DNA from: a virus
Lineage: Duplodnaviria; Caudoviricetes
IMG/VR virus record: IMGVR_UViG_3300001528_000407
Location: 1 to 64,000 of that record
Strand: one strand, 5' to 3'
DNA: 64,000 nucleotides
A model generated the notes under the pieces. The model did no database searches and was not told the origin of the DNA. It saw only the letters and a program-made list of their open reading frames with translations. This document shows, in pieces, positions 24,537 to 58,606 of the stretch; within the stretch, counting starts at the first letter, position 1, and each line of letters begins with the position of its first letter. Position numbers and translations under genes: made by a program.

Positions 24537-24828
24537 TCAATCAAAACTCTCCACAAGAAAAACATTTTCTTGCCAAGCGTTAATCGTTATCGTAGGACAA
24601 AGGCTTGTCTTTAGAAACAAACCTTTGTTCTGCCCTCTTGGGTATTGGAAGAAGAAATGTCTTTTTATAGTTCCACCAATATCTTTGGCTCTATTCCACC
24701 CCCCCACATGTATGGCAAGCGGGAGCGATGCCTTGGGGACTGAATACCCTGCGGCAAGACTCAAAACGCTTGTCATAGGGAGGGGTGTCTATAGAGCCTA
24801 AGACGATGGTGTGGATATTCTTATTCAT
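24537..24828 (-). CDS. Small gene split at a G7 run; resembles the RVxSPxGIAPT...CGGG.EPKI segments of phage cytosine-MTase-associated ORFs
   Basis: ATG 24828: MNKNIHTIVLGS...GIAPACHTCGG|VE*. One extra G gives GGGIEPKILVEL*; one fewer G fuses to ...YPRGQNKG..CPTITINAWQEN. Confidence 0.5.
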
Positions 24829-25714
24829 CATCGCCATGGTTCTCGTCGGGATTCTCGTCACGGTTCTCTTCCTGTGCTGACTGCTCGTCGTGATTTTCTT
24901 CCTCGTTCCAATCAAGCGTCTTCACCAGGAAGGAGATACCCTTGCCAAACTCTTTTTCCTCGTAACCACGATGCAAGTACCATTTCAAGACCCATTCCTC
25001 TGCCTCTCGGATATTCCACTCCAGGGCTACCGTCTTGCAACCTTGCTCCTTGGCGTTGCGCTCGGCTACTTCCAGTAGTCTTGTGGCGATATGACGGTTG
25101 CGGTAGGCTCCATTCACCCAAAGGGCATAGATGAAGGCATCGCACTTCTGCCAGAAATCATCCTTCTTGCGCTCGTCCTCAGTAGGAATATCAAGATGCA
25201 CATTGCCCACTACCACACCATCGTGGATGGCATTGGCGAGGTATCGGGTGCATTTGAACCATTTCTGAATATTCGTGGTGATACTGAAAGAGAAGGACGT
25301 GATACGTACCTGAATGCCTTCGCCGTGGGTTTCATCGCCTTTATCATCGGCTGGCTTGTTGTCGCCATTACCGTTGCCTTTTTCGTCCTTGCCATTATCA
25401 GGGTTGCCATTGGCTGCTGCATCAGATGCAAGCATATCGTAATCCACACCGAGTTCCTTGGCTCTCATGCGAAGATCCTTTTCCCTTGCCCATCGCATCA
25501 TGCAGGAGAATATCCAGATGGCTACGACAAAACTAACCACCACATGACTCACTGCTTGCTTGCCTACGGTGAAGAAGAGCTGCGATAGCTCATCGGGGTG
25601 GCAGACATCGAACGTCCATTGCAGCAGGGCATTGAACGCTAACATCAGGATGAGGGTTACGAGTATGGGCATCGAATAGATGCCCAATCGCTTCAAAAAT
25701 CTCTTTGCTTTCAT
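24821..25714 (-). CDS. Membrane-anchored GNAT-family acetyltransferase
   Basis: Two N-terminal hydrophobic helices, D/N/G-rich linker, C-terminal LWVNGAYRNRHIATRLLEVAE...GCKTVAL...WYLHRGY (GNAT motifs A/B). Confidence 0.75.
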   Translation of the reverse strand: MKAKRFLKRLGIYSMPILVTLILMLAFNALLQWTFDVCHPDELSQLFFTVGKQAVSHVVVSFVVAIWIFSCMMRWAREKDLRMRAKELGVDYDMLASDAAANGNPDNGKDEKGNGNGDNKPADDKGDETHGEGIQVRITSFSFSITTNIQKWFKCTRYLANAIHDGVVVGNVHLDIPTEDERKKDDFWQKCDAFIYALWVNGAYRNRHIATRLLEVAERNAKEQGCKTVALEWNIREAEEWVLKWYLHRGYEEKEFGKGISFLVKTLDWNEEENHDEQSAQEENRDENPDENHGDDE

Positions 25715-25754
25715 ACTTCTTTTCTTTCTTGTCTTTTATGTTATTTATGCTTCA

Positions 25755-25976
25755 TTATTTTCTCATGATTACCTTGTCGCCTCTCGTTACCCGAAAGATA
25801 AGAGGGGCGAAGATGTAGCGATGGTTGCCACCAGCCTTTCTTGGGCATCCGTCCTTTCGGCATACTTTGCCATAGAATGCCCATTCTCCACAGATATGCT
25901 CCATCCTCTCTACGATGATGCTCTGCTGCTTGGTGGCGACTATATCGCCTATCTGGATATTAGTTACGTCTATCAT
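25755..25976 (-). CDS. Hypothetical protein
   Basis: 73 aa ORF with an ATGA overlap to the next gene. Confidence 0.6.
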   Translation of the reverse strand: MIDVTNIQIGDIVATKQQSIIVERMEHICGEWAFYGKVCRKDGCPRKAGGNHRYIFAPLIFRVTRGDKVIMRK

Positions 25977-26725
25977 TCTATTTTCTTCCCATCCACTGCA
26001 TCATGCACCAGCTTCTCATTATCCAACAAATCCTTTGGCACATTCATTGCATCGAACACACCACATAGGCGAAGGAAATGTTGAAGCTCATGCACGGCGA
26101 TGAATTGTGCCACGGCTGCGGCGTTATAGGTGTTATAGCTACCCCTGCCATCGGTCTGCTTCACAGGCTTCACTATCTGCACGATGATAGCCTTGCACTT
26201 GCTTTCGGTCTTGCTGGCTACCCAACTCAATCCTTCCTCCTGCAACTTATCCTCCAGGTCGTGATCCTGATAAGTCAACTCGAAGCCTACGGCGTAATAG
26301 GTGGCCTGCCATCTTCGAGCCTTAAACTCGTAGGCGAAAGCTACTTTCAAGTCGCTGTCCCTTGGTTTCATCGTCTCGCTATCCGACAACTTGCGGAATA
26401 TCGCCGAGTTCTCGGCGAACCAATCTTCCGAGAAAGGAATGATGGTGAGGTTGCTGATAGGCTGGGTACAGTAATTGGCAATAATCATTTCTTGCGTTAT
26501 AGCCTTGCCCATCCATTTCATCTGACGATAGCGGGCAGTATATATCTCGGCATACTTCTTGGAATATTCCGAGACGATGCAAACCTCACGTTCCTTTGGT
26601 GTGCCGTCCTCTTCCGCCATATTGCCATATACGAAGTCGCCCACCGTCAATTCTCCAAGCTGAAAATCCTCATCCTCATCGTGTCGGATGAATCCTACAT
26701 TATTACTATTGCTCTTCTTTGCCAT
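25973..26725 (-). CDS. Hypothetical protein
   Basis: 250 aa ORF in a packed operon. Confidence 0.65.
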   Translation of the reverse strand: MAKKSNSNNVGFIRHDEDEDFQLGELTVGDFVYGNMAEEDGTPKEREVCIVSEYSKKYAEIYTARYRQMKWMGKAITQEMIIANYCTQPISNLTIIPFSEDWFAENSAIFRKLSDSETMKPRDSDLKVAFAYEFKARRWQATYYAVGFELTYQDHDLEDKLQEEGLSWVASKTESKCKAIIVQIVKPVKQTDGRGSYNTYNAAAVAQFIAVHELQHFLRLCGVFDAMNVPKDLLDNEKLVHDAVDGKKIE

Positions 26726-26942
26726 ATTGCTTACATTTATCTATTATTCTCCTTGCGTTCTTGTCTATTCTCAATGCGTTGCCCTTAGTTACCAACGCTG
26801 CACTCAGCTGCGCGAACAGACCAGCAAGATTGTTGAGGTTCTCCATATCCTTCATATCGAGATACCCTTTGTCTCTTCTTGCCTTCACAGTCACCTGCCC
26901 CGATTCAAAATCACAGGTGATGGAAACAACTACCTTTGCCAT
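26706..26942 (-). CDS. Hypothetical protein
   Basis: 78 aa ORF. Confidence 0.55.
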   Translation of the reverse strand: MAKVVVSITCDFESGQVTVKARRDKGYLDMKDMENLNNLAGLFAQLSAALVTKGNALRIDKNARRIIDKCKQYGKEEQ

Positions 26943-26956
26943 ATCCTTTTTAATAT

Positions 26957-27736
26957 TTATACTTTCTGCGCAATCTTTACGTTTGCGTCCGTATCATCTT
27001 GTAGCGAGAACTTTTCCTTGTCGCCATATTTCTTTTTCAGTCTCTCTAGGCTATTTTTCAAGACAGCCATTACCAAGTCTTCCGACATGTGCCCTGCATC
27101 AAGCTCCTCACCATACACGCAAAATGGGAGAACATCATTAAGATAGAAATCCTTCATATCATCTCTATCCACATTTTCGTATGGCACGAAGTCGATGGAT
27201 TCGATAGATGCTATCACATCGTTATCATCTGACTTGTATCGGGAGATAACGAAACCGCCAGGGAACACCGTCAATACGAACTTTTCGACAAACACCATCT
27301 TGCTTAAAAATGCAGGTATCGCTGCCAACGCTTGCGCCACCTCCTGCTCGGTAGGTTTCTTATATCCCCATATCGACGATACATAAGCACTCACAAAGTT
27401 AGGATGATAACGAGTATTGAAGTTGTAGAATCGCCAACAACCGTTCTTCGTCTTCGTCAGCATATCCGTCTGCACGTCTCTGCCATCGGCATAATGATAA
27501 GCCACCGCATAGATGCAGCCCTCCTCGTTGCGAGTGACAAACTCCACATCGGTCTCGTTCCGTTCCACCTCCCTCGGCTCTGCCATACGCTTGATGGCAT
27601 TGTTGAATTTCAGGTAGGCGGTCGAATCGGTGTATTCATCGCCATAGAAAGTGGGTGCCAAACCGATGAGGTCTTCACTCTGATTATTCTCTTTGATGAG
27701 ACCCAACTTCTTAGGGTCGAGTATTCCAATATCCAT
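26957..27736 (-). CDS. Hypothetical protein
   Basis: 259 aa ORF. Confidence 0.65.
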   Translation of the reverse strand: MDIGILDPKKLGLIKENNQSEDLIGLAPTFYGDEYTDSTAYLKFNNAIKRMAEPREVERNETDVEFVTRNEEGCIYAVAYHYADGRDVQTDMLTKTKNGCWRFYNFNTRYHPNFVSAYVSSIWGYKKPTEQEVAQALAAIPAFLSKMVFVEKFVLTVFPGGFVISRYKSDDNDVIASIESIDFVPYENVDRDDMKDFYLNDVLPFCVYGEELDAGHMSEDLVMAVLKNSLERLKKKYGDKEKFSLQDDTDANVKIAQKV

Positions 27737-27748
27737 ACTTTCGTCTCC

Positions 27749-28933
27749 TTATCTATTAGGATCTACCGTGATGTTGTATTTCGCCAAGACTGGCACAAGT
27801 CCGGTCATTACTCCCCTGCCAAGGAGAGGCACTGAGTCGAGCGCACTGCGAGGTATCACCTTCTTCTTAGGCAACTGCTCTTTGCTGGCTTCCTCATCGA
27901 GAAGCTTCTTGCAAGCTGCCAACTCCTTGTCGGCATCGTCTCGCTCGTCGAGGGCTTTCTTGTATTTGGCATTCAGTTCATCATATTGCTTCTGTGCCTC
28001 CCTCGCCTCGGCTCTCTGCTTGGCGATGAAGTCGGAAGCCTTCTGCGCCGTGGCTTGATAATCCTGTAGCTTCGCACTTAGCTCGTCGATTTGCGTTTGC
28101 AGGTTTGTAACTACCGTTTGGTGATCCGCCTGAGCGTCCGACATCTGTTGCATGTGCAGGATATTGAGGTTCTCGATTTCCTTCTGCTGGTCATTGATTT
28201 TCTTACGCAATACATCGCTGTCCGCCGCTGTGACGATATAATTGCCCAAGCGGTTGATGTTCTGCGAGAGGATGGCAAAGAGACCCTCGGTCTCGCTCTC
28301 CAAGGACAGGGCATCATCGGCGGTGAGGATATAGCTATCATCGTTCCACCAATCGGGGCGAGTGATATTCAGCTTGCCCGATGGCTGCTGTGCAGCTCGG
28401 TTGCTGGCTTGCATATCTGGGGTATTGGCTTGCGTATTGCTACCCGTACTACCTCCATTCGTTTGTACCTCTTGGTTCTTATCCTGGGCATTCTGCTCCT
28501 CGGCGTTATCCATATCCTTCACCACGTCGATAGCGGAAGGCATATCACCCAACTTATCGTAGTAGTTATCCTCACGGGCATCCAGGGCAAGTCTGCCCTC
28601 ATAGACATCCCAAAGGTTGTTGTCGATGAGATAGTAGATAGCCCCAAGCACGATGTGCGCTCCATATTGGTCGATATACTCGTTAATCGGCGCAACCCAT
28701 CGCTTGCGCACCACCATATCCAGCCACTCCTTATATACCTTGCCATTGAGCATGTTTTTATCCTCTTCCTTCTGATAACAGGAGGCGATACGAGGGATAA
28801 CGTAGAGCGGTTCGGTCTTCTGCAAGAAGTTCTCGTAGTTGATGCCGAGAGCCATGCGCACCATGTTGCTCACGTTCTTAAATTGATATTTCTTCAGCAA
28901 GGAGCGAAGAACGTTTTGTTGCTTTGTATTCAT
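27749..28933 (-). CDS. Coiled-coil hypothetical protein
   Basis: 394 aa ORF with a long C-terminal heptad region. Confidence 0.65.
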   Translation of the reverse strand: MNTKQQNVLRSLLKKYQFKNVSNMVRMALGINYENFLQKTEPLYVIPRIASCYQKEEDKNMLNGKVYKEWLDMVVRKRWVAPINEYIDQYGAHIVLGAIYYLIDNNLWDVYEGRLALDAREDNYYDKLGDMPSAIDVVKDMDNAEEQNAQDKNQEVQTNGGSTGSNTQANTPDMQASNRAAQQPSGKLNITRPDWWNDDSYILTADDALSLESETEGLFAILSQNINRLGNYIVTAADSDVLRKKINDQQKEIENLNILHMQQMSDAQADHQTVVTNLQTQIDELSAKLQDYQATAQKASDFIAKQRAEAREAQKQYDELNAKYKKALDERDDADKELAACKKLLDEEASKEQLPKKKVIPRSALDSVPLLGRGVMTGLVPVLAKYNITVDPNR

Positions 28934-28983
28934 AATTAACCTTGTTTTGATTGACTGATTCGATTTCTTCTGATTATCGTAGC

Positions 28984-29964
28984 TTATTTCTTACTACGTT
29001 TTCTCTTGCTTGGTGATGCGGAAGTAACCCGTTCGCCTACGGTGGCATACATACAGTCCACCATGTTTGCTTTCTTCAAGCAGATATAGGTGCCCACGAT
29101 GATGTCACGGAAGGCGCGGCTCATCTTGCAGTTCTGAAACAACACTTTAATGATATTCACCCTGCCCTGCTCGTCTTGCTCGCTATTCAGCACATTGGTG
29201 AGGCAGTGCATCGTCTCACCCTTGGCTGGCTGCTGAGTGTAAGGATTGCCCTCGATATGATAGAGAGCCAGGGTAGTAAGCTGCTGCGGATGGCGAAGCT
29301 GAAACTCATGCACCTTATCCTTGAGGAGCGACATCAACTGCTCGAAGTCTTCATGCAAGTTCTTCAAGCCATCGACGAATGCCAAGAAATCGACTGCGGT
29401 CTGCTTGTCGGACAGAATGGCTTTCAGCTCCTCACGGCTCATCGTAAGGTCTGGCTCCTCTTGCAGGAGCAATTCTATGCGCTGCTCGATAGGGACGGTT
29501 TCATCTTGCAAGGCTTTCTCGAAAGATTGCTTTGCCTCTTCCAGTCGAGCCTCCATTTCTTTGAGCGACATAGAGCCATCGTTGCTTTCCTTGGGGATAG
29601 TGACGGCGGTCTTGCCATCAAACATTTCGTATCTCGCACCCATCAGCCAAGACTGGAGGTTGATGTAATGATCCTTGTCGGCATGGGCGATATTCGCCTC
29701 GGTCCACTCCGAGTATTGTTCGTAGGTCATGTGGTGCATCAGTATCAGCACCATTTCTTCGGGAGTAAGAAAATCCACTCCGTCGAAATCACAGGTGCCA
29801 CCCACCACGCCACCTACCCAGTAAGGGCTGCGGCATCCCTCAAACAGTCGCTCGTTCACCTGCTCGGCGAGGTCGAGACAAGACTGCTGGAAGGCATTGA
29901 TGGCTTCGAGAGCCTTATCCTTTTCGGGAGTCTCCTGCTTATTATCATTCTTATCTTGTGCCAT
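28984..29964 (-). CDS. Hypothetical protein
   Basis: 326 aa ORF. Confidence 0.65.
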   Translation of the reverse strand: MAQDKNDNKQETPEKDKALEAINAFQQSCLDLAEQVNERLFEGCRSPYWVGGVVGGTCDFDGVDFLTPEEMVLILMHHMTYEQYSEWTEANIAHADKDHYINLQSWLMGARYEMFDGKTAVTIPKESNDGSMSLKEMEARLEEAKQSFEKALQDETVPIEQRIELLLQEEPDLTMSREELKAILSDKQTAVDFLAFVDGLKNLHEDFEQLMSLLKDKVHEFQLRHPQQLTTLALYHIEGNPYTQQPAKGETMHCLTNVLNSEQDEQGRVNIIKVLFQNCKMSRAFRDIIVGTYICLKKANMVDCMYATVGERVTSASPSKRKRSKK

Positions 29965-29977
29965 AACTTATCGGATA

Positions 29978-30424
29978 TTATTCATTCTCGGCTTTTTGCG
30001 CCACCTTCGGCGCGCATACGTTACCATGCTCATACACCACAGGAGCCTCGCCTGCCTTGATGCGCTCCTCGTTGTATCGGGCGAAGGCGACACCAATCTT
30101 GTCTTGGAAGGTTTCATTGATGGTACGTCGGTCTTGCTTCACCTGGGCGATGCCTTTCTTGAAGATATTATAGGCATTCGTTTTACGAGTACCCAAGCCA
30201 GCGTTGAATGTGCCAAGGTCGAAAGCCTGTTGCTTCTGGAATGCTTTCAACTCCTCTTTCTGTACCTTCATAAAGGCAATTTTATCTTCGGAGATACTAT
30301 TGTGCTCACGCTGATAATTCGCTTTCAGGCTGTTCTCACGGTCGTAAGTAGCCATCATCTTCTCATCTCGCTCCTTGCGAAGGGGAGCGAGAACGTCTTG
30401 TTGAAATTGTTCTACTGTTCTCAT
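29978..30424 (-). CDS. Hypothetical helical protein
   Basis: 148 aa ORF. Confidence 0.6.
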   Translation of the reverse strand: MRTVEQFQQDVLAPLRKERDEKMMATYDRENSLKANYQREHNSISEDKIAFMKVQKEELKAFQKQQAFDLGTFNAGLGTRKTNAYNIFKKGIAQVKQDRRTINETFQDKIGVAFARYNEERIKAGEAPVVYEHGNVCAPKVAQKAENE

Positions 30425-30605
30425 TGTTACTAAAATCTATAAATCCTTTTTTCTTATTTGTTTATGAATGTTGTTATTTATAGGGCATGGTATGGTTGCG
30501 CCATCGGTCGATAATCTGACGGAAGACCGACAAACTCCCATATCATTTACCTTTTTTAAGTGAAGAGTGAAGTATGAAGAGTGAAGAGTCCTCTCGCATT
30601 CCTTG

Positions 30606-31001
30606 TTACACGAAATCCAATGGTGGGTATCGACGCTGTAACTCTTTCTCTTTCGCCTCTTTCTCGGCTTGTTGCTCTGCCTTGACTTTCTCCGCTTCTT
30701 CCTTGAAGAGCTTCTTTAGGGCATCACGCTCCATCATACTATTCTCTTTGAGAAGAGCGATAAACTTGTCTCTACCCAACTTCTTGTAGTAAGGAATGAA
30801 CTCCTTATCCACCAAGTCAGCCGGCTCACCAACAGGAATGCTGACCTGCGTAAGGTCTCGCCCTTGCTTATCCACGATGAGGAGCATTCGCTTTTTGCCA
30901 CCCTCGCCTTGCACGGTGATACCACCGCTATACTTGGCTACGCTAAAATAGCTGCGAGTCCAAGCCTCCTTGGTGAGCAATATGGATCTAAACTCTGCCA
31001 T
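30606..31001 (-). CDS. Hypothetical protein
   Basis: 131 aa ORF. Confidence 0.65.
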   Translation of the reverse strand: MAEFRSILLTKEAWTRSYFSVAKYSGGITVQGEGGKKRMLLIVDKQGRDLTQVSIPVGEPADLVDKEFIPYYKKLGRDKFIALLKENSMMERDALKKLFKEEAEKVKAEQQAEKEAKEKELQRRYPPLDFV

Positions 31002-31042
31002 AACCTATAATTTATTGTTTGTTATTTATTATCTATTATTCG

Positions 31043-31204
31043 CTATGCGATTTCTTTATCGCCGCAATTCGATATATCTTGATACTGCATATATCGTTTA
31101 TGCTTCATGCAGTATAAGCCTCCGATGCAAATAGCTCCGTGCAGACACACCCAGCAAGGCTTCGCATCGGGCTTCATCGAACAATGTTTTAAATCAACCG
31201 ACAT
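31043..31204 (-). CDS. Small Cys-rich protein (53 aa), not in the ORF track
   Basis: MSVDLKHCSMKPDAKPCWVCLHGAICIGGLYCMKHKRYMQYQDISNCGDKEIA*; first gene after the promoter at about 31235. Confidence 0.6.
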   Translation of the reverse strand: MSVDLKHCSMKPDAKPCWVCLHGAICIGGLYCMKHKRYMQYQDISNCGDKEIA

Positions 31205-31230
31205 CTTTATAACTATATCTCAAATATATT

Positions 31231-31245
31231 TCGGTTGCAAATTTA
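31231..31245 (-). promoter_or_regulatory. Promoter TAAATTTGCAACCGAA driving the 31204-to-22977 operon
   Basis: -7 box TAAATTTG followed by CAACCGAA; the same TTTGCAACCGAA occurs upstream of the primase (about 41632-41647). Confidence 0.6.
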
Positions 31246-31354
31246 GGAATTAAATCTTAAATTTGCAAATAAATTAGGAAATAAATAATATCAGGGGTAT
31301 GATTTTAACGTTAATTTTACATTAAAACATACCTCTGATATATTTCTAAGAATA

Positions 31355-31407
31355 AAAAGCCTCGATACCTTGCCTTGCATTATAGAAGGCTCGATACCGA
31401 GGCTTTT
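31355..31407 (-). terminator. Terminator after the capsid/tail-tube operon
   Basis: AAAAGCCTCG...CGAGGCTTTT inverted repeat with a T-run on the - strand. Confidence 0.7.
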
Positions 31408-31460
31408 CAGAAATATGAGTTTAAATTGCCAATGGAAATCCATTGTAGAGTGGGGAGCGA

Positions 31461-31643
31461 TTATTCATCGTCTTCATCAAGCGAAGAGGTCTCATCGTTA
31501 ACGGATGCCACCTTCTTTGCGCTCGTCTTGCTTGTGCTTGACTTAGAAGACTGCGTGGACGCAGTGTTCTCGGCTGCGCTATCCGAAGACTTTGTAGAGG
31601 CGGAATTAACGTCGCTCTTATCAGTTCCGCCTGTTATTCCCCC
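31461..31643 (-). CDS. -1-frame C-terminal extension of the tail tube protein
   Basis: Open -1 frame after GTG GGG GAA TAA: GITGGTDKSDVNSASTKSS...VASVNDETSSLDEDDE*; no good independent start. Confidence 0.6.
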   Translation of the reverse strand, partial: GGITGGTDKSDVNSASTKSSDSAAENTASTQSSKSSTSKTSAKKVASVNDETSSLDEDDE

Positions 31644-32212
31644 ACGCCGGTACCAGTACCGTTCAAGAGAGAATCCCAACCACCTTCAGGTGTTGCAATC
31701 TCGTAGCGACCATAAGTAGTAGGCTGGAGAGTTCCGGACAATGTAACTGTTCGGTCATCCTCTGGCTTCTTGCCTGTGTCGCCCTTGATGTTACCTGAAT
31801 CGTACTTGAAGTCGTGCTGCTTGTCATACACGATGATAGAGCTTGCACTATCCTCTACGATGTAACCGCACTTCAAGTTGTTGAGACCACGAGCCACGAA
31901 AGCAGTGTCTGCGTTTACGCTCTCAAGAACGTAATCCAAGGTCTGCTTGAAGCCCTTCTGATAACCAAGGTTCTCCCAAGTATGACCCTGGCCACCATCC
32001 TGGCACTCGAACTTATAGAGACCCTTACCCTTCTTGAAAGATGCAGTAGTAAGAGCTGCATACTTGTTAGTTCCCTCTGTTGGCTCCAAAGCCTTCATGA
32101 GGTCGCTCTTCAAGAAAACATATACGTTTACGCCAAGACCACCGAAGTTTTCCAAGCAATCATTCTCGGAAAGCAAGTCTTTGATCTCTGGGCATGTCTT
32201 AGTATCTGCCAT
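31634..32212 (-). CDS. Probable major tail tube protein
   Basis: 192 aa, immediately after the capsid gene; GKGLYKFEC and GDTGKKPEDDRTVTLSG segments resemble tube proteins. Confidence 0.6.
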   Translation of the reverse strand: MADTKTCPEIKDLLSENDCLENFGGLGVNVYVFLKSDLMKALEPTEGTNKYAALTTASFKKGKGLYKFECQDGGQGHTWENLGYQKGFKQTLDYVLESVNADTAFVARGLNNLKCGYIVEDSASSIIVYDKQHDFKYDSGNIKGDTGKKPEDDRTVTLSGTLQPTTYGRYEIATPEGGWDSLLNGTGTGVGE

Positions 32213-32335
32213 AATTGTATCTTTTTTAATGATTAATAGAAAAAAATGGCGGCGGAAGCCATATTCCGTCAGGTCAGGCTTGCTCGCCCGCCGCCAAAGG
32301 ATTTATAGTGTGTTTTAGTAAGCCTAACCGTCAGG

Positions 32336-33625: not shown

Positions 33626-33691
33626 AATTAATATAGTTTTAATTGTGGATAAAATGTTTTCTGTTAAATCGAAGTAAGAATAATGATGAGA

Positions 33692-37121: not shown

Positions 37122-38087
37122 TCATTTCTTTTCGTTCATTTGATAATATAGCATGATGGCATCCGTTACCAGGAAGCAATAATTCAGTGGGTCTTTGCTT
37201 GCATCAATCTTTGCCTTGCCTGCTGCCATCAGCTTATCCAGCTTGTCCGTCTGGCTTGGCGAGAGATTATAGGCGAGAGCCACGGCATCAATGTAGGCAC
37301 CGTTATTCTCGGTTCGCTTGATGAAGTTCATACCAAAATGCTTGCCACTCTCGAAGAAGAGGTTGATAGCCTCCATCATCTGCTCGGCTGTATAGGTAGG
37401 GCGGCGAGGATGCAGCTTGCGATATTTCTCACTGTACGTCTTCAGTCGTTTCTCCATATACTCATTGATACTATCCGAATAATCAAAGTACAATTCCTGG
37501 TCTGCCTCGGTCTTCATACCCTTGTCTCGTGAGCACTGGAAGAAGCCTCTCAACTGCTGCATCATCGTAGCCACGCCGTCAAACTGGGTGAACTCGATGG
37601 CGTTGCCGAATACATTCTTCATGTCGGCTTTAATATCAGTCAAGAGACTCTCCAGCATATCAGAGAGGAAAGTAATCTTATCCAGGTTGGCAGACAGTCT
37701 ATCCACCTGCTCGTTCATGCCTTCCTTGGAGTAATCTACATAGTACTTCATCAAGTTGTCGAAGGAGAGGAGGTCGTAGGTGGTATCAGAACGAATGTTC
37801 GACTGCACGATAAGGGCATACATCAGGTCTGCCAACTTGCGGTCTCGCTGCTGGATGCCACGGATAGCAGCTTGTATCTCCGCCGAATTAGGGCGCATAC
37901 GTCCTGCTGCCTTCACCAGGTTGTTGCGCTTATTGACGAGTTCCACAAAGTCAGGATCACCGAAGAGTAATTTCAGTGTCTCGGTGTATTTCTCCATCGG
38001 TGTGTCCTTGAAATTGAACACATAGATGGTAGGCTCCATTTCTATTTTTGCGGCTTTCTTCGCCAAGTCTTTTTTATTCTTTGCCAT
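37122..38087 (-). CDS. Hypothetical helical protein
   Basis: 321 aa ORF. Confidence 0.65.
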   Translation of the reverse strand: MAKNKKDLAKKAAKIEMEPTIYVFNFKDTPMEKYTETLKLLFGDPDFVELVNKRNNLVKAAGRMRPNSAEIQAAIRGIQQRDRKLADLMYALIVQSNIRSDTTYDLLSFDNLMKYYVDYSKEGMNEQVDRLSANLDKITFLSDMLESLLTDIKADMKNVFGNAIEFTQFDGVATMMQQLRGFFQCSRDKGMKTEADQELYFDYSDSINEYMEKRLKTYSEKYRKLHPRRPTYTAEQMMEAINLFFESGKHFGMNFIKRTENNGAYIDAVALAYNLSPSQTDKLDKLMAAGKAKIDASKDPLNYCFLVTDAIMLYYQMNEKK

Positions 38088-49303: not shown

Positions 49304-49334
49304 ATTTATTATCTATTATTTCGTGTTGGTAAAA

Positions 49335-50057: not shown

Positions 50058-50108
50058 AGTTTCTTTAATGTTTAATTTCGTTGTTACTGTATGTTACCTT
50101 GAATACTT

Positions 50109-50147
50109 TGCAAAGATAGTGATTCTGTTATGAATGGTGGGGACAAA
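50109..50147 (-). promoter_or_regulatory. Extended promoter TTTGTCCC-N21-TATCTTTGCA (copy 4)
   Basis: Reverse complement TTTGTCCC CACCATTCATAACAGAATCAC TATCTTTGCA, upstream of holin/tape measure. Confidence 0.75.
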
Positions 50148-50190
50148 ATGCGGCTCTGCATGAATAGCGGTTCGGGGTTCGGGGTGAAAG

Positions 50191-50229
50191 TTTGTCCCAA
50201 CCGTTTATGGGGAATTTTATAATTTTGCA
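50191..50229 (+). promoter_or_regulatory. Extended promoter TTTGTCCC-N21-TAATTTTGCA (copy 5)
   Basis: TTTGTCCC AACCGTTTATGGGGAATTTTA TAATTTTGCA, upstream of the terminase operon. Confidence 0.75.
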
Positions 50230-50271
50230 GACAGTGAGAATAAACATTGTTGGACAAAATAATATAAATAA

Positions 50272-51125
50272 ATGGTAAGCGAACAATTACAGCGCAAGAT
50301 AGACCGAGCTATTCACCTGCTGCAAAGCGTGGCTAAGGGATATGATGGCGAGATAGAGGTAGCCTATTCGGGTGGCAAGGATAGCGATGTTATCTTGCAG
50401 CTCGCTAAAGAAGCTGATATTCGATATAGGGCTATCTACAAGAATACAACCATCGACCCGCCTGGCACAATAAAACATGTGCAGGATATGGGTGCCGAGA
50501 TATTGCGACCTAAGCAGACGTTCTTTCAGCTTTTGGCGAAGAGAGGCTTTCCCTCCCGATTTAGTCGATTCTGTTGTGCTGAATTGAAAGAATACAAGGT
50601 ATTGGATAAAGCTATTGTTGGTATTCGCCGATGCGAGAGCGATAAGCGAGCCGAACGTTACAAAGAGCCTACTCTTTGCCGATACTACGGTGCCAAGCGA
50701 GAGGAAAATCATGTGGAGCAAATCTTGCCTATCTTGGATTGGAGCGATGATGATGTCTTGCAGTTTATCGAAGACCGTAAGATAACGCTTGCACCGATAT
50801 ACTACAATTCTGGGGGGGGGTAATCGACGTTACTCAACGTTTGGGCTGTATGTGCTGCCCACTTGCCACAGAGCGCAAGCGTATTCTCTACTTCAAGAAA
50901 TATCCCAAGATGGTGAAAGCCTATCTTCGGGCTGGCATGAAATTCAGAGCCTCGCATCCTGATAGTTATTGTGTCGCCCATTACGATGATGTTTACGAAT
51001 GGTTCACCCGTGATGTATTCTACCCAAGAAAGAAAGATTGGGATAGAGTGAGCGGTGGGCTTTTCGAGAAGCCAGACTATAAGGCTTTCTTGGAAAAAGA
51101 ATTTGGCATAGATTTGACGCTATGA
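50272..51125 (+). CDS. PAPS-reductase-family (PP-loop, Fe-S) protein interrupted at a G9 run
   Basis: SGGKDS and RFCCAELKE in the first part; stop right after G9 (50812-50820). One extra G continues VIDVTQRLGCMCCPLA... to 51125. Confidence 0.8.
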
Positions 51126-51176
51126 CGAAACTTAGCATATAACATTTAATACTTAACATTAAACAAAAAAGCAGAA

Positions 51177-52007
51177 ATGAGCCAACTAACGCAGAATACC
51201 CTTGCACGCATCGACAAGTGGTTATCCAATGGGGTGTCGCTGGAAACGATGTTCCCCAAGCTGGAGCAACGCTACAGGATGCAGCTCTGCAAGGAGTTTT
51301 ACACCCGATGGGTGCAAAACAAGGACATAGACCCTCGCACCACTTGCCGCAACATCGCCCGACGTGACTACGAGATGTTCTTGCAACAGGCGGGACAGGG
51401 CAACCAGGAGGCACAGGCGATGGTGATGGCTCTGCACATCGACATCGACGAGCAAGGCGACATCAAGCCTCGCTCCATTACCGAGCTTAACAACGATGTG
51501 GCTGTTTGCAACCACATCATCCGCTTCTTCACTACCGACGAGAGTCCTCGCCACAAGCAGATGTATATCTCTTCGGCTGAATGGCTCATCCGTACCGGCA
51601 AGATGCAGAACAACGACCGCTCTGTCTCAAAGGGTATGGATGCCTTGGCGAATATCTATGGTAACTTCCAGGAGGAGAAGGATGCTACCGAGGAGATGCC
51701 GGATATGAGCCGCATTGCCATTACGCAAGATGTAAGCGTGGTGAAGAGAGACCGCGTGAACTATACCGACGAGTACAAGCGCAAGATGGCTCGCAAGTAT
51801 GGTCTTACGCAAAAGGATATGCAGGAGATTGCCGAGGAAGAACAGCTCAACGCTACCGACCTGGGCAAGGTGCCAGACTATATGGAGTTTATGGAAGAGA
51901 TGATGGAAGGCGATGACGATAAGAAGAAAAAAGAGATGCCGATGCCAGGCGATGCCGATTCTTCGGATAGCGACGATGAGAAGGAGGGAGGTGGCACCGA
52001 TGAATAG
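51177..52007 (+). CDS. Probable terminase small subunit
   Basis: 276 aa helical protein with an acidic tail, in the same operon upstream of TerL; assignment from context. Confidence 0.5.
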   Translation: MSQLTQNTLARIDKWLSNGVSLETMFPKLEQRYRMQLCKEFYTRWVQNKDIDPRTTCRNIARRDYEMFLQQAGQGNQEAQAMVMALHIDIDEQGDIKPRSITELNNDVAVCNHIIRFFTTDESPRHKQMYISSAEWLIRTGKMQNNDRSVSKGMDALANIYGNFQEEKDATEEMPDMSRIAITQDVSVVKRDRVNYTDEYKRKMARKYGLTQKDMQEIAEEEQLNATDLGKVPDYMEFMEEMMEGDDDKKKKEMPMPGDADSSDSDDEKEGGGTDE

Positions 52008-52272
52008 CAAGAAACATTTTGGTGGTGACTTCGACAAGCACGCTCGCCGTCATGCCAACAACCATCATCAGAACAAAATTCCTCCTTTCCGTCCCGATCC
52101 TGAGCATTGGACTCGAAAGGGTCCGCATGGGTGGAAGGCGAAGGTCGCCTACGAGACGGAAGACGATGCCTGTGAGTATCTGAACCAAAGTCCGAAACTC
52201 AAAGCCCTTGGGTATCGGGCATATCAATGCAAGGTTTGCCAGAAATGGCATATCGGGCATTTCGCCGAGTAG
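52000..52272 (+). CDS. Small basic Zn-ribbon-like protein
   Basis: Start at ATG 52000 (MNSKKHF); AYQCKVCQKWHIGH motif. Confidence 0.65.
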   Translation: MNSKKHFGGDFDKHARRHANNHHQNKIPPFRPDPEHWTRKGPHGWKAKVAYETEDDACEYLNQSPKLKALGYRAYQCKVCQKWHIGHFAE

Positions 52273-52343
52273 CGATTTTCCTTGGTACGGATAAAACGGA
52301 TAAAACGGAATTTTATAGAACATACATTAACATTTAAAGACAG

Positions 52344-53114
52344 ATGATAGAACTGAATAAGATATATAATGAGGATTGCTTGGAGGGTATGAAACGCATA
52401 CCCGATGCAAGCGTGGATTGCATTATTTGCGATTTGCCTTACGAGGTACTAAATCGTAGTAACAAGCATGTGCAGTGGGATAAGGTTATTCCGATGCAAC
52501 CGCTCTGGGAGCAATACCTACGTATCGCAAAGCCGAATGCAGCTATCATTCTCTTCGGACAGGGCATGTTTACCGCACAACTCATGATGAGCCAGCCCGA
52601 TATTTGGCGATACAATATCACTTGGGATAAAGACCGAAAGACTGGTTTTCTGAATGCAAAGCAGATGCCTTTGCGACAGACGGAAATCATTTCGGTGTTT
52701 TATCGTGAGCAACCAGTTTATCATCCGCAAATGCGAAAGTGTTCTAAGCATGAGCGCAATCATAGCAGAGGCAGACAGCAGGGAAAACAAACTAATAGAT
52801 GTTACGGTTCCTTCGGCAAAGCTGAAGACTTGATTACTGATGAGAAATATCCATCAGACCTTATCACATTCCAAAGAAACGTACACGATAGTTGGCATCC
52901 TACGCAGAAGCCTCTTGACCTTATCCGCTATCTCGTTCGTACCTACACCGATGTGGGGGGGTGCATTCTTGACAACTGCATGGGCAGCGGCACTACCGCC
53001 ATCGCTTGTATCAAAGAGAAGCGCAACTTTATGGGCTTCGAGTTGAACAAGGAATATTACGACAAGGCTTGTGAGCGCATCAAATTAGAAATGATGCAGC
53101 CCACACTATTCTAA
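52344..53114 (+). CDS. DNA methyltransferase, N6-adenine/N4-cytosine (beta class)
   Basis: DLPY motif IV, HPTQKP, LDNCMGSGTT motif I; contains an in-frame G7 run at 52955-52961. Confidence 0.92.
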   Translation: MIELNKIYNEDCLEGMKRIPDASVDCIICDLPYEVLNRSNKHVQWDKVIPMQPLWEQYLRIAKPNAAIILFGQGMFTAQLMMSQPDIWRYNITWDKDRKTGFLNAKQMPLRQTEIISVFYREQPVYHPQMRKCSKHERNHSRGRQQGKQTNRCYGSFGKAEDLITDEKYPSDLITFQRNVHDSWHPTQKPLDLIRYLVRTYTDVGGCILDNCMGSGTTAIACIKEKRNFMGFELNKEYYDKACERIKLEMMQPTLF

Positions 53115-53136
53115 GATTATAAAAAGTATTAAGATT

Positions 53137-53460
53137 ATGGCAAAGATTATTTATTTCGGGACGAATGGAAGTTCCGGTCATTCTCCTATAGGCATGGATG
53201 AAACGCTAACACCAGAAGAATACTCTATGTGGTGTGAATGTGATAATGATGTTTGGATTGGTAACGTCATGAAAAATCCAGGCCGTCATCTTGTAAAACA
53301 CCATGGAAAGGTTTACACCAACTACGGTGTACCTTTCTCTGTTGACGAAAAACGATGTATGGATCATACCGAATTATTTTGGGAAGGAATACATACAGAG
53401 GAAGAAATCGTTAATCTCATAAAAGGTGATAAATTTTTAAAACGACAATTCAATATGTAA
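53137..53460 (+). CDS. Hypothetical protein
   Basis: 107 aa ORF. Confidence 0.6.
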   Translation: MAKIIYFGTNGSSGHSPIGMDETLTPEEYSMWCECDNDVWIGNVMKNPGRHLVKHHGKVYTNYGVPFSVDEKRCMDHTELFWEGIHTEEEIVNLIKGDKFLKRQFNM

Positions 53461-53521
53461 GAACTGTGATTGTAATTAAGAATAATAAAAACGGAAAAGT
53501 ATTATTATTATTTATAGAAGT

Positions 53522-54067
53522 ATGAAAACAAAAAGTATCATTTTGGCATCAGTACTCGCGATAGCAGTACTTTTTGCAGGTTCAGTAATTGGTTGTTATT
53601 TCCACTATAACAATCAGGAGATTTCCCTTCGTCAGCAATCAGAAGCGCAGCGTGGCAAGATTGAAGGTGTTCACGACAAGATGTGGAAGGTGCTCCAACA
53701 GAAAGCGCAGGTTACTGACGAATACAAGTCCACCTTCGAGAGCATCTATCCTAAGCTCATTGAAGGTAGATATTCGCAAGGCGACGGCTCACTGATGAAG
53801 TGGATAAAGGAGAATAATCCTAACTTTGATGTGTCACTCTATAAGGACTTGATGCAAAGTATAGAGATTCAGCGTTCTGAATTTCAGACTTCACAAGAAA
53901 GAATGCTCGACATCATACGAGAACACGAAACGCTCATCAAGACCTATCCTGCGAAATGGTTTATTACCGATGTACGACCTATAGAGTACAAAGTAATATC
54001 TTCTTCCAAGACTAAGATGATTATGCAACTTGGAGAGGATAACGATATTGACCTTTTCAAAAAATAA
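53522..54067 (+). CDS. Membrane-anchored coiled-coil protein (LemA-like)
   Basis: N-terminal TM helix, then YNNQEISLRQQ...helical bundle ending in YPAKWF. Confidence 0.6.
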   Translation: MKTKSIILASVLAIAVLFAGSVIGCYFHYNNQEISLRQQSEAQRGKIEGVHDKMWKVLQQKAQVTDEYKSTFESIYPKLIEGRYSQGDGSLMKWIKENNPNFDVSLYKDLMQSIEIQRSEFQTSQERMLDIIREHETLIKTYPAKWFITDVRPIEYKVISSSKTKMIMQLGEDNDIDLFKK

Positions 54068-54073
54068 GGATTT

Positions 54074-55258
54074 ATGGAGATTTTCATTTTTCTTATCCCA
54101 TTTGTTGTGGCTGCTTTTTTGTTGATTTTCTTCAGAAAGCAGACCACCTGGTGGGAATATTTCGCGCTAATCATTCCGTCCATACTCGTCGGCATACTAC
54201 TGGAGTTTGTTTTCAAGCAAGTTAATGCTGACGATACAGAATACCTCGGAAGTTATGTCACAAAGGTAAGACATTACGATTCTTGGAACGAATATATCCA
54301 CCGTACATGCACTAAAACAGTAGGGAGCGGCAAGGATGAGCATACCGTTACCTATGATTGTTCTTATGTGGAAAACCATCCAGAGTACTGGACGTATTAT
54401 AACGCAAGAGGCAAGGAAGAATATTTTATGAATAAAGATGAGTTCGATATAGTCCGCAAGAAACTAAAGACTTCACCAGTATTCGTAGATATGAATCGAA
54501 ATTATTACACGAAAGATGGGGATGCCCAAGATTGGTATTGGGATAATTCTATAGAGAATGCCTACACGCTTACATCGGAACACCAATATAAGAATAAGGT
54601 GAAAGCATCGCGATCCATCTTTAAGTTTGAGGATATTAGCAAAGAAGAGGCAAAGAAACTCGGATTGTATGAATATCCCAATGTGATAATGTACGACCAA
54701 CGCCCCATCATGGGATTGAAGTTTCCACAAGAACAGGAGAAAACTATCCGATGGTTAAATGGGTTTTATGGCGAGCAAAAGCAATTCCGTGTTTTTCTTC
54801 TATTCTTCAAGAATAAGCCAGAAGAAATTGTGGAAAAACAACGCTCTTATTGGCAAGGAGGTAATAAAAACGAGCTTGTGGTTTGCATTGGCATTGACTC
54901 TAAATGCAAGGTAAAATGGTGCGAGGCCTTTTCTTGGTGCGATTCACCAGTTGTAGCTGTGAAAAGCAGAGATTGGTTTATAAACCATCCCCTCAACCTA
55001 TGCAAGTTTGCCGAATATATAGAGCCTGTTATTAAAGCCGAATGGCACCGCAAAAGTTTTAGCGATTTCGATTATCTAACGATAGAACTTTCCGACGGGC
55101 AATATTACGCCATCATAGTCTTGTTGTTGATTTTCAATATATTTATGAGTGCATGGATAGTTAATAACGAATACACAAATGATAGCGATGAGAATCAAGA
55201 CGGACAATCTCCAAGAAAAAGAAGAGTAAGTATAGAAATACCACCCGCTTGGAGATAA
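54074..55258 (+). CDS. Integral membrane protein with a large extracytoplasmic domain (TPM-like C-terminal part)
   Basis: Two N-terminal TM helices and one C-terminal TM helix; QRSYWQGGNKNELVVCIG motif. Confidence 0.6.
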   Translation: MEIFIFLIPFVVAAFLLIFFRKQTTWWEYFALIIPSILVGILLEFVFKQVNADDTEYLGSYVTKVRHYDSWNEYIHRTCTKTVGSGKDEHTVTYDCSYVENHPEYWTYYNARGKEEYFMNKDEFDIVRKKLKTSPVFVDMNRNYYTKDGDAQDWYWDNSIENAYTLTSEHQYKNKVKASRSIFKFEDISKEEAKKLGLYEYPNVIMYDQRPIMGLKFPQEQEKTIRWLNGFYGEQKQFRVFLLFFKNKPEEIVEKQRSYWQGGNKNELVVCIGIDSKCKVKWCEAFSWCDSPVVAVKSRDWFINHPLNLCKFAEYIEPVIKAEWHRKSFSDFDYLTIELSDGQYYAIIVLLLIFNIFMSAWIVNNEYTNDSDENQDGQSPRKRRVSIEIPPAWR

Positions 55259-55308
55259 AAAAGGATAACATTCAACACTCAACATTTCCAAAATACTAAA
55301 ACTATACG

Positions 55309-57309
55309 ATGCAGCAACCACACTTAATATATCTCAACAAGTTTCAGCAGCAGTCGCTCTATATGGCTGCCAAGGATGAGCGAGTTATCGCTGCCCGCCG
55401 TCTGGGTAAGACCGACGGCTTGGTGGCTCCCTACGTTTGGATGGCATCAAACTCGATGCCTGGCATGTTGGGAGCCTGGGTAGCGGTGTCTCGCCAACAG
55501 GGTTTCGGCAAGACCATCCCTGGTACCATGTCTGCCATGGAGCGAATGTTTGGTTTCACACAGGGCATTCACTTCGGTTGGGGACGACCGCCGAAGCACG
55601 CCCGTGAAAGTATCTTCAAACCCAAGAGCTACGACAATATCATCTGGTTTGCCAACGGCGCACAATGGGTATTGATTTCGCTCTCGCAGACGGCTTCCGC
55701 CAACTCTTACACCTTCTCGGCGATGGTAGGCGACGAGGCGAGATTCTTCCCTTATAAGAAAGTGACCGATGAGTTGATGCCAGCCCTATCCGGACAGACG
55801 CACCCCTTGGGCAACATCGCCTTCACCGATTACAACCCTTGGTATAAGTCCACCCGATTCCTTAGCGATGCCTCGCTCACCTCGAAGGGCAGTTGGCTGG
55901 AGCGAGAGGAGGAGAAACTTGACCTCGTGATAGAGAACGGTCGATTCAAGGGCAAGACCTACCGATGGGTGCAGGAGCAACTGGAGGAATATGCCAATAA
56001 GGTTATCTTCTATAACGACTTGCTCTATAATGCCAAGAAGACTGGGCACACGCCTCATGTGGTCTATCCAGAGGAGCGACAGGTGTTCCGTGCCGTGGCT
56101 CTGAAGATGATTAAGCATGAGGGACAATTCAAGATTCTGCCCAACCACAGCTCGCAGCTTACGAAGAATATGGTGGATATGGCTGTGAACTATAAGTTGG
56201 TCTCTGCCGAGGATGCCGAACTCATCTACGATTACGAGTATCTGCTTACGCCTGAACAGGATTTCGAGATGCAGATGTTTGATAAGGCAGATAAGTTTCA
56301 GGAGGGATATTTGAGGGAGTTGCGCTGTTCGGCTTTCGTGGTTCGTCGTGCCTCCACGCTCGACAACGTGGATATTCTTGGGGAGGACTATATCCGCACC
56401 ATGAAGCGAGATTTGCCTGCCTATACTTTCATGGTTTCGATACTGAACGTGAAAATCAAGAAGTCGAACGATGGCTTTTATAGCAACTTGGATATAGAAA
56501 ATGTTCATGGGTACATACCCGATTCGGTTGATCCGCTCTCGAATGCCAACTTCCGCACCGTGAAGGCTACGGGTGTTATCGACGGCAAGAAAATCACATC
56601 GGAGAGTTATCAGCCCGATTTGCAGGAGTTGGCAGAGCGGGATGATTGTCGCATGGATGCCGATTGTATCACCGAACTGCCTTTGTACCTGGCTTTCGAT
56701 TATAATGCCAACATCAATACTTTGGTGGTGGGCCAAGTGTATCAGCGTGACGGTGTGGAGGCGGTGAACGTTATCAAGAGCTTCTACGTGAAGAACGAAC
56801 AGATGTTGCGTGACTTGGTAAGCAATTTCTCCCGATATTACGCACCTAAGCGTGCCATCAATCGTGATGTGGTTTACTTCTATGATACCACGGCGAAGCA
56901 GGGTGCCTCGTATGCCTTGACCGATGAGCGTTTCTATATGGTCGTGATTAGGGAGTTGGAGCGCAACGGTTGGAACGTGACGGCGATAGATATGGGTGTG
57001 CCCGAGAAGCATGAGATAAAGCATCGTATCATCAACGATGCCTTGGCTGGGATAGAATATCCTGCCATCCGTATCAATCAGGCGCAAAACCCCGACCTTA
57101 TCATCGCCATGCAGCTTTGTGAGGTGAGTATCGGGTATCAGGGTTTCCGTAAGGATAAATCACAAGAGAAGAAAGCAGAAACGGAGGATAACTTGCCGTT
57201 GCAGCAAAGAACTGACTTCACCGATGCCTTCGATAGCTTGTATCTGGGATGCAAGTTCTGGAGAGGGAATATCGGGTGGTTTGTGCTGCCGGATGGTAGG
57301 AATGTGTAA
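55309..57309 (+). CDS. terL: Terminase large subunit
   Basis: Walker A AARRLGKT, Walker B MVGDEA, RNase-H-like nuclease AFDYN ... TDFTDAFD. Confidence 0.92.
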   Translation: MQQPHLIYLNKFQQQSLYMAAKDERVIAARRLGKTDGLVAPYVWMASNSMPGMLGAWVAVSRQQGFGKTIPGTMSAMERMFGFTQGIHFGWGRPPKHARESIFKPKSYDNIIWFANGAQWVLISLSQTASANSYTFSAMVGDEARFFPYKKVTDELMPALSGQTHPLGNIAFTDYNPWYKSTRFLSDASLTSKGSWLEREEEKLDLVIENGRFKGKTYRWVQEQLEEYANKVIFYNDLLYNAKKTGHTPHVVYPEERQVFRAVALKMIKHEGQFKILPNHSSQLTKNMVDMAVNYKLVSAEDAELIYDYEYLLTPEQDFEMQMFDKADKFQEGYLRELRCSAFVVRRASTLDNVDILGEDYIRTMKRDLPAYTFMVSILNVKIKKSNDGFYSNLDIENVHGYIPDSVDPLSNANFRTVKATGVIDGKKITSESYQPDLQELAERDDCRMDADCITELPLYLAFDYNANINTLVVGQVYQRDGVEAVNVIKSFYVKNEQMLRDLVSNFSRYYAPKRAINRDVVYFYDTTAKQGASYALTDERFYMVVIRELERNGWNVTAIDMGVPEKHEIKHRIINDALAGIEYPAIRINQAQNPDLIIAMQLCEVSIGYQGFRKDKSQEKKAETEDNLPLQQRTDFTDAFDSLYLGCKFWRGNIGWFVLPDGRNV

Positions 57310-57336
57310 CTATTCTTTTTTTAATGTAAACAAAAT

Positions 57337-57935
57337 ATGAGTAAAGATTGGACGGGCGGTAGAGCCGCTGTATTCAAGACGCTTGGAGCGAGCAACCACA
57401 AAAATGGCGAGCGACAGCGTGAGGACTACTATGCCACGGAGCCTGCGGCTACCGAATGGCTATGCAAGATTGAGGATTTCGGGGGGGTAAAATCTTAGAG
57501 CCTTCCTGTGGAGAGGGACATATCAGCAAGGTTCTTTTGAAGCATGGGTATGATGTTACGAGCCGAGACTTGATAGACAGAGGATTTGGCGAGGGCGGTC
57601 AAGATTTCCTTGCCATTGATAACTTGTCATGGCAGGGGCATATCGTCACCAACCCTCCCTACAAGTATGCGCAAGAGTTTGTGGAGAAGGCATTGCAGAT
57701 TATTCCGCCAGGATATAAGGTGGCTATGCTGCTAAAGCTGACGTTTCTTGAAGGAAAGGCTCGTAGGTATTTATTCAATACACAGCCACCTGTTAGGGTA
57801 TGGGTGAGTTCTTCGAGACTGAAATGTGCGATGAATGGTGATTTCGATGCAACCGAGGGTAGCGCACAGGCTTATGCTTGGTTCGTATGGGAGAAAGGAT
57901 ATAAGGGAGACACCATCGTGAAATGGTTCAACTGA
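57337..57935 (+). CDS. DNA adenine methyltransferase interrupted at a G7 run
   Basis: ATG 57337 MSKDWTGG...DYYATEP...EDFGG|VKS*. One extra G continues GKILEPSCGEGHI (motif I)...VTNPPY (motif IV) to 57935. Confidence 0.85.
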
Positions 57936-58161
57936 TATTCTTTCCAATTTGGAATAAACTGGAAAGTATTGAAAAGATTTGAATAATTTGAATAAATGGG
58001 TTGAATTTATTTGAATTTACTTGAATTTACTTGAGTAAGAGAGTTAATCCTTGGAAAATTCTCTGCAAAGAGCCGAGGGCGATAAACACTAAGGTTTCGG
58101 GGTTCGGGGAATTTCCTTTGCAAATAAAAGCAATCATTACCTTTGACGCAAGAAAAAGAGC

Positions 58162-58201
58162 GAAGGGCAGACGTTATCGCAACGGCTGCCCTTCTTAGTT
58201 T
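58162..58201. terminator. Terminator between convergent operons, possibly bidirectional
   Basis: GAAGGGCAG...CTGCCCTTC stem with A-rich left and T-rich right flanks. Confidence 0.7.
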
Positions 58202-58279
58202 TAACCTTATAAACTACTATAGAACTTTTGGAATTTGTTCTGATTATGAATAATGAAAAATAGAATTTTATCTTATCAT

Positions 58280-58606
58280 TTATCTATTGCATCTATAATT
58301 CCACAAACACGCATAGCTGCTGCCCATTGCTCGTAAGGGCATTGGCAAGCCTACCCCCCCGATTGTGCGGCTTCGCCTTATCGCCGAGGTGGGGTAAGCG
58401 AGGTCACACACACCAAGCACAGGGCAATCGGTGTAGCCTTGCTCCGTGGCTTGGCGTATGCGCAAGAAGGTATCGCCCGTCTCTACCTCGTTCACCAACT
58501 GGAGAAAAGGTCGGGAGGTGTCGTATATTCTATATAATGTGCCATCGGGATAGAAGCCATATAGCTTGCCATCCTTCACGATGGTGCCTCGCTTGTAGTG
58601 TGACAT
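58280..58606 (-). CDS. Small protein with a G7 run near its C-terminus; resembles MTase-associated DLAYPTS..RRSR segments
   Basis: Frame 0 ends GGVGLPMPL...CNR*; with one extra G it ends GGGRLANALTSNGQQLCVFVEL*. Confidence 0.6.
   Translation of the reverse strand: MSHYKRGTIVKDGKLYGFYPDGTLYRIYDTSRPFLQLVNEVETGDTFLRIRQATEQGYTDCPVLGVCDLAYPTSAIRRSRTIGGVGLPMPLRAMGSSYACLWNYRCNR

Follow-up and report, generated by a model that had tools for sequence, protein, structure and literature searches.

Homopolymer tracts that switch genes by frameshift are already described in phages and in their bacterial hosts. Hypermutable poly-G tracts of 7-11 G are carried by the Campylobacter Fletchervirus phages in genes for receptor-binding proteins, where, as far as the accounts cited here describe it, a change in tract length shifts the reading frame, subpopulations result and host recognition is altered (Sorensen et al. 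2021, Cell Rep 35:109214, as cited in bioRxiv 10.1101/2025.10.21.683753 and PMC12823448). In phages T2 and T4, homopolymer tracts at contingency loci give reversible frameshifts as a form of bet-hedging (bioRxiv 10.1101/2025.10.21.683753); an earlier, unstudied report of poly-G tracts in the methylase gene of a Bordetella phage (printed BBP-1) is mentioned in that preprint. In bacterial phasevarions, simple repeats in Type III mod and Type I hsdS or hsdM genes switch a methyltransferase ON or OFF and alter the methylation of the population (PMC4209511, PMC6902483). Here we analyzed the first 64,000 nucleotides (nt), hereafter the window, of the IMG/VR virus record IMGVR_UViG_3300001528_000407, in which four genes are interrupted at runs of seven or nine G. 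We consider it likely, from the comparison of related sequences, that these runs are contingency tracts of high mutability, through which two enzymes and two stand-alone mini-genes resembling the target recognition domain (TRD) of C5-cytosine methylases undergo phase variation. Poly-G tracts of phages, phage contingency loci and phase-variable bacterial methylases are all known already.

The genes concerned distinguish this system from those described. As in Fletchervirus, a change in the length of a G tract shifts the frame of a phage gene, although two methylases, a PAPS-reductase-family gene and TRD mini-genes are affected here instead of receptor-binding proteins. Compared with the T2 and T4 loci, the tracts of this phage are many (13 in 87 kb), cluster in a single functional class and are known from sequence alone. 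The simple repeat inside a methyltransferase gene is shared with phasevarions. Phasevarion genes belong to cells, in many cases to their restriction-modification systems, and act as gene regulators, whereas the present tracts lie in orphan phage methylases and detached recognition modules that presumably serve counter-defence. A slippery homopolymer at the junction of two frames is also typical of programmed -1 frameshifting, as in dnaX and the G/GT tail chaperone genes of phages, and of productive transcriptional slippage. The position and phase of such sites are conserved among homologues. The present tracts, by contrast, differ freely in length and phase, and numerous homologues are intact.

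The record is a linear, metagenome-assembled contig of 87,338 bp with an estimated completeness of about 88%. The phage is uncultivated, with a full genome of about 100 kb and 46% G+C. Among the proteins of this tailed phage are a holin, a head protease and one of 1,822 amino acids (aa) that has a domain of the minor-tail (tape-measure) type, and the phage belongs to a large group with genomes of about 90-110 kb. Searching IMG/VR with the C5-methylase core of the record yielded 245 related stretches, and more than 550 contigs were found with the methylase of site 3 (see below). Genomes of relatives are labeled G001 to G007 and related loci by L-numbers; L033 is the rest of this record, L035, L036 and L216 belong to G001, and L003 belongs to record G002. 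No near-identical copy was found when 8.7 kb of the window were compared with GenBank phages by megablast, and patterns made of the exact flanks of sites 2 and 3 around a variable gap matched no copies of the very same phage in IMG/VR.

A total of 13 G or C runs of at least seven residues were found in the 87 kb, six in the window and seven in the remaining 23 kb. Four of the six had been listed in an earlier note on this DNA: site 1 at 24699-24705 (C7, that is, G7 on the minus strand) in a mini-gene, site 2 at 50812-50820 (G9, plus strand) in the PAPS-reductase-family gene, site 3 at 57481-57487 (G7, plus strand) in a DNA methyltransferase gene, and site 4 at 58354-58360 (C7, G7 on the minus strand) in a TRD mini-gene. 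The description given there holds for these four. In the upstream frame the first G of each run opens a codon, and on the G strand a T comes directly after the run. Each needs one more G or two fewer to be joined to the homologous continuation, which lies in the -1 frame. The fifth run (52955-52961, G7, plus strand) lies in frame inside an intact N6_N4 methylase gene that is accordingly ON, and the sixth (14408-14414, C7, G7 on the minus strand) is intergenic, between the open reading frames (ORFs) 14478-15635 and 13960-14316. A homopolymer within the coding region, as expected of a contingency locus, is thus present as G7 or G9 in four ORFs and as one further in-frame tract. All five coding tracts sit in DNA-modification-type genes, which together occupy less than 5% of the window.

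The G runs are moderately enriched in the window itself, with eight matches to the heptamer GGGGGGG against 3.06 +/- 1.93 in shuffled sequences, a number reached by 1 of 100 shuffles. The enrichment is strong in the 80 loci around the C5-methylase core (718 kb), where 172 runs of seven or more G were counted on the sense strand against ten such runs of C. In the long ORFs of this genome GGG accounts for 8.5% of the glycine codons, GGC for 40% and GGT for 35%. As the earlier note had also remarked, long homopolymers of A or T are not frameshifted. None of the A/T runs of seven or more disrupts a long ORF, and those of up to 8 within long ORFs are all in frame.

The DNA methyltransferase gene at site 3 (57337..57935, plus strand) is split by its G7 into a 53-aa N-terminal part (ORF 57337-57498) and a 151-aa C-terminal part in the -1 frame; the gene is OFF and would be in frame at G5 or G8. 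Its assignment rests on a match to phrog_799 (E 4.8e-53) and on motif I (ILEPSCGEG) and motif IV (NPPY, within TNPPY), which are legible in the -1 frame, while a Pfam scan of this methylase gave no match. In L135 and L142 the two parts correspond to a single uninterrupted frame. L135, the nearest relative at 87% identity, keeps the frame with a G5, and the members of the subclade with a tract at the same position have G7 in three cases, G8 (in frame) in three and G9 in three. Near-identical pairs were absent among the loci of this subclade at a threshold of at least 98.5% identity over more than 3 kb. Compared with L135, the C-terminal part shows a proportion of nonsynonymous differences (pN) of 0.10 and of synonymous differences (pS) of 0.80, with no stops, and is therefore not an old pseudogene.

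Most relatives lack a tract at the site 3 position. Many of these carry instead of the N-terminal G tract a poly-C tract at the peptide TPPP, on the sense strand of the same methylase gene. This tract is C8 in G003 (71263-71270) and in G007, both with an intact gene, and it is C7 in G004 (37340-37346) and C9 in G001 (L035, 7031-7039), both with a split gene. Two independent tracts in one methylase, on opposite strands, favor selection on mutability over a site-specific recoding signal.

A comparable picture is seen at site 2. The PAPS-reductase-family gene (50272..51125, plus strand) is split at its G9, is OFF, and would be in frame at G7 or G10. The N-terminal part (ORF 50272-50823) ends in ...YYNSGGG before a stop and belongs to the family by its matches to PF01507 (E 3.4e-13, 50.4 bits against a cut-off of 22.5) and phrog_424 (E 2e-28). 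The C-terminal part continues in the -1 frame as VIDVTQRLGCMCCPL... and includes RLGCMCCP, of which the cysteine motif GCMCCP is common to intact relatives. Both halves match one contiguous frame in L003 and L004, where the tract is absent and the gene is intact. The enzyme genes of sites 2 and 3 are thus genuinely split, since the halves of each correspond to a single frame in intact relatives. The state of the tract differs among the other relatives. A G8 followed by C requires +1 in L216 of G001 and in L217, and the same G8 followed by C requires -1 in L215 because the upstream phase differs; L227 has a G8 that is in frame, and in L218 the run is interrupted (GGGGAGG) and the gene is intact.

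The mini-gene at site 4 (58293..58606, the low coordinate being approximate; minus strand) is a stand-alone C5-methylase TRD gene that is OFF and one G short. With G8 it would end ...RSRTIGGGRLANALTSNGQQLCVFVEL before a stop, and the 108-aa ORF that was listed here is in the wrong frame beyond the tract. Among 18 orthologues, nine with G8 and one with G11 are intact, with a length of 105-110 aa and an ending in ...RRSRTVGGGKLVNALTA..VFVEL, and the others are broken at G6 (two), G7 (three) or G9 (three). The tract is G7 in G003 and G9 in G004 and G007. A Pfam scan gave no match for the ORFs of sites 1 and 4, and no longer proteins matching the site-4 ORF turned up in a word-indexed search. We therefore built profile A1 from seven intact site-4 orthologues and used it for an exhaustive search of 1.84 billion representative proteins. 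It gave 287 matches, many of them short stand-alone ORFs; in some of these the match ends where the tract lies, which would suit OFF alleles. All ten of the longer matches that were checked are PF00145 methylases, with the match lying just N-terminal to the part holding motifs IX-X, and the site-4 ORF is thus a detached homologue of the target-recognition region of C5-methylases, the variable region between motifs VIII and IX of PF00145. The profile covered site 4 only. Directly downstream of ORF 58618-59574 (minus strand), which encodes a radical-SAM-like protein (PF04055, below cut-off), the site 4 mini-gene takes its place.

The mini-gene at site 1 (24665..24837, minus strand) begins MAMMNKNIHT and runs to CHTCGG and then the G7, and is also OFF and one G short. 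Its present reading stops after GGVE, and with G8 it would read ...CGGGGIEPKILVEL before a stop. Both G003 and G004 have one G more in the orthologous tract, G8 instead of the present G7. The ORF appears TRD-like through its resemblance to the other mini-genes. The suggestion that both small ORFs are methylase-associated is consequently upheld by the profile matches for site 4 only, and site 1 may belong here by this resemblance. The site 1 mini-gene is situated directly downstream of ORF 24821-25714 (minus strand), which encodes a GNAT acetyltransferase (PF00583) with a hydrophobic N-terminus.

Further mini-genes of this kind were found outside the window. The C5-cytosine methylase core (L033:900-4300, at 64.9-68.3 kb; minus strand; PF00145 E 1.6e-53) is circularly permuted, with motifs IX-X preceding motifs I-VIII, and has no recognizable TRD. 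It is flanked by about ten TRD-like mini-ORFs, three of which are intact and free of tracts, and six of the seven tracts outside the window are situated in this row of mini-ORFs of about 50-65 aa, which end in ...YE, ...VEL or similar before the stop. Read from ATG, the tracts at 66053 and 65885 need one more G and those at 67889, 66292, 65476 and 65121 need one fewer; the in-frame reading of 65476 and 65885 is borne out by orthologues from other genomes that are not interrupted. Since a script that chose the ON length of each tract family by ORF length was unreliable at about 50 aa, its totals were not used, and we assigned ON lengths manually, restricting this to tracts with intact orthologues. 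Several of these tracts do not begin on a codon boundary. We also considered a reassigned stop codon as the source of the many short ORFs and rejected it; the stops of the mini-genes are a mixture of TAA, TAG and TGA, and the long ORFs use all three.

The proposal of a genome-wide switch in which every gene is repaired by the same additional G does not survive this inventory. The list on which it was based left out the runs at 52955 and 14408 and the seven outside the window, at least four of the latter need the removal of a G, and the codon-boundary start breaks down as a general rule. The observation is real but was selectively listed. Phase variation of modification genes by slipped-strand mispairing, the first of the two explanations offered in the earlier note, fits the comparison of run length and phase in homologous phages proposed there, and it is well supported by that comparison.

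Orthologous tracts, grouped by their flanks, range in length from 6 to 11. The steps between relatives, and those between G003 and G004, are not multiples of three, and lengths that are in frame go with intact orthologues while other lengths go with broken ones, which is the toggling expected of a contingency locus. Phase variation is favored because the orthologous tracts differ in this manner and because the in-frame state and both out-of-frame states occur. The two genomes G003 and G004 are about 99.6% identical over long aligned blocks, yet 7 of their 10 G/C tracts of at least seven residues differ in length, compared with 2 of 14 A/T tracts of at least seven and none of 44 A/T tracts of six. 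A G7 inside the ORF of the core C5-methylase is G7 in 19 of 19 relatives.

These lengths also bear on the explanation by sequencing or assembly error, according to which each tract in reality has one more G, no gene is broken and the G homopolymers were under-called in the consensus. All four listed tracts need one more G, and the record is a metagenome-assembled contig of unknown platform. We nevertheless hold this explanation to be unlikely. The record itself contains, at 52955, a G7 that leaves its frame undisturbed. Its intergenic G7 at 14408, which disrupts no gene and can be used as an internal check on run-length calling, is identical in length and flanks in G003 and G004, three genomes in all. 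Under-calling cannot yield the four tracts outside the window that need one G fewer, nor does it agree with the in-frame A/T runs of up to 8 or the constancy of the tract in the core methylase. Moreover, out-of-frame tracts recur in independent assembly contigs; L215, L217 and L218 are NODE-named contigs (apparently from SPAdes) with 33-102x coverage.

A second explanation is programmed recoding, in which a shared GGG GGG GT signal would make ribosomes shift to -1 or RNA polymerase add a G, and thereby set a ratio of expression from a fixed DNA sequence. The likeness of the four tracts in phase, codon register and following T speaks for such a signal, and long G tracts could permit some transcriptional or P-site slippage, with leaky expression from OFF alleles. 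As the general explanation, however, it is very unlikely, and the shared signal offered as the second possibility in the earlier note is not supported. Neither the out-of-frame state nor its direction is conserved, as orthologues are in frame, shifted by +1 or -1, or without a tract; many homologues are intact with the tract absent or interrupted, and the same methylase has its tract elsewhere and on the other strand in relatives. Elsewhere in this genome there are tracts that would have to shift the other way. Read in the zero frame, GGG GGG GTA does not conform to the X XXY YYZ heptamer of tandem slippage, and no downstream structure stands out, since the 80 nt after each of the four tracts fold no better than shuffled sequences (z -1.15, +0.75, -0.13 and -0.48; pseudoknots were not modeled).

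The tracts could also be neutral mutational hot spots, G runs that mutate often in dispensable accessory genes which are being lost and not adaptively switched. In favor of this, the PAPS reductase and the TRD mini-genes are accessory genes of patchy distribution, and some half of the orthologues are OFF. A tract that is apparently non-coding varies as well: the G8 at L033:11393-11400 (genome 75393-75400) is G7 in G003 and G8 in G004, and the gap that holds it, about 700 nt long, separates a 1,231-aa replication-type ORF from the gene that follows. Despite this, neutrality seems quite improbable. The tracts are kept, and have arisen independently at different positions of the same methylase; G runs on the sense strand are enriched about seven-fold despite the rarity of the GGG codon; and in-frame lengths are over-represented at site 4, with 10 of 18 against one third expected. 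The broken genes are not decaying pseudogenes, because both halves are open and conserved and the downstream halves remain under purifying selection, as seen from the pN and pS of the methylase C-terminal part.

If the runs are contingency tracts, slippage of the strands during replication of phage DNA would add or remove one G, and each gain or loss would shift the frame and toggle the gene between a full-length (ON) and a truncated (OFF) state. In the sequenced state, the DNA methyltransferase, the PAPS-reductase-family enzyme and the two TRD mini-genes would be OFF for want of one G, and the second methylase would be ON. Outside the window, further TRD mini-genes around the TRD-less C5 core would be OFF in either direction. 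Such switching would presumably be frequent and reversible within a population, and its benefit may be a bet-hedging of the modification pattern, in which protection from host restriction enzymes is weighed against exposure to modification-dependent nucleases. On a wider scale, we tentatively propose a multi-locus epigenetic phasome, an idea that in our judgment falls somewhat short of probable. Poly-G switches, of which the window would have at least five independent ones and the genome about 11, might gate two orphan methylases, a PAPS-reductase-type enzyme and recognition modules that dock in trans onto the TRD-less C5 core, and one population could then carry many combinations of modification patterns as a hedge against both restriction and modification-dependent nucleases.

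Several points weigh against the interpretation as contingency tracts. The tract lengths in this assembly could be consensus errors, and sites 1-4 are all OFF in the same direction, which fits an under-call and would have a chance of about 1 in 8 if the direction were random. For the tract type of 67889, none of eight relatives has the predicted ON length (six have G6 and two G8), and either the ON assignment is imperfect for short ORFs or some modules are kept OFF. For the PAPS-reductase-family protein, a part in modifying phage DNA is putative. Nor does the interpretation account for the marked bias toward T behind the run; T follows 12 of the 13 tracts here and 126 of 172 in relatives, 112 of the 172 continue with TA, and there is a pyrimidine bias before the run. 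In the mini-genes this T is partly due to shared ancestry (GGG GGG GGT Axx), but the preference holds also for the unrelated enzyme and non-coding tracts, and glycine codon usage offers no explanation for tracts that are not homologous.

If the tracts switch as proposed, uncultivated phages of a large and common group alter their own DNA modification through mutations that are cheap and reversible, a counter-defense strategy documented so far mainly for bacterial methylases and phage receptor-binding proteins. Frameshifted methylase and modification genes in metagenome-assembled phages should be neither corrected nor dismissed as pseudogenes or errors before the distribution of tract lengths has been checked.

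The two remaining runs of the window differ from the four sites. The N6_N4 DNA methylase (52344-53114, plus strand; PF01555 E 8.5e-29) is intact, with the G7 at 52955-52961 read as part of D-V-G-G-C. This tract is unique to the present genome, the relatives having GAGGGCGAC at the same place without a tract, and it may have newly arisen and be currently ON. The intergenic run at 14408-14414, in the context GGCAAAATTGGGGGGGTAAGGTACCC, is spanned by no ORF. Its predicted fold is not significant (z -1.2), and scans of the window for tRNA and Rfam families gave no matches, so that it is not a known RNA. The G7 can pair with an upstream CACCCC, and the region holds a GGGTA/TACCC hairpin.

Two further observations concern G runs in relatives. 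At the extreme end of contig G002 (38391-38422), long G runs look like a poly-G read-tail artifact and not like a biological feature. In G001 (L036), an intergenic G10 at 27971-27980 is located about 45 nt upstream of the orthologue of the window ORF 21920-22825, which has no tract in the window; this G10 is possibly a promoter or leader tract.

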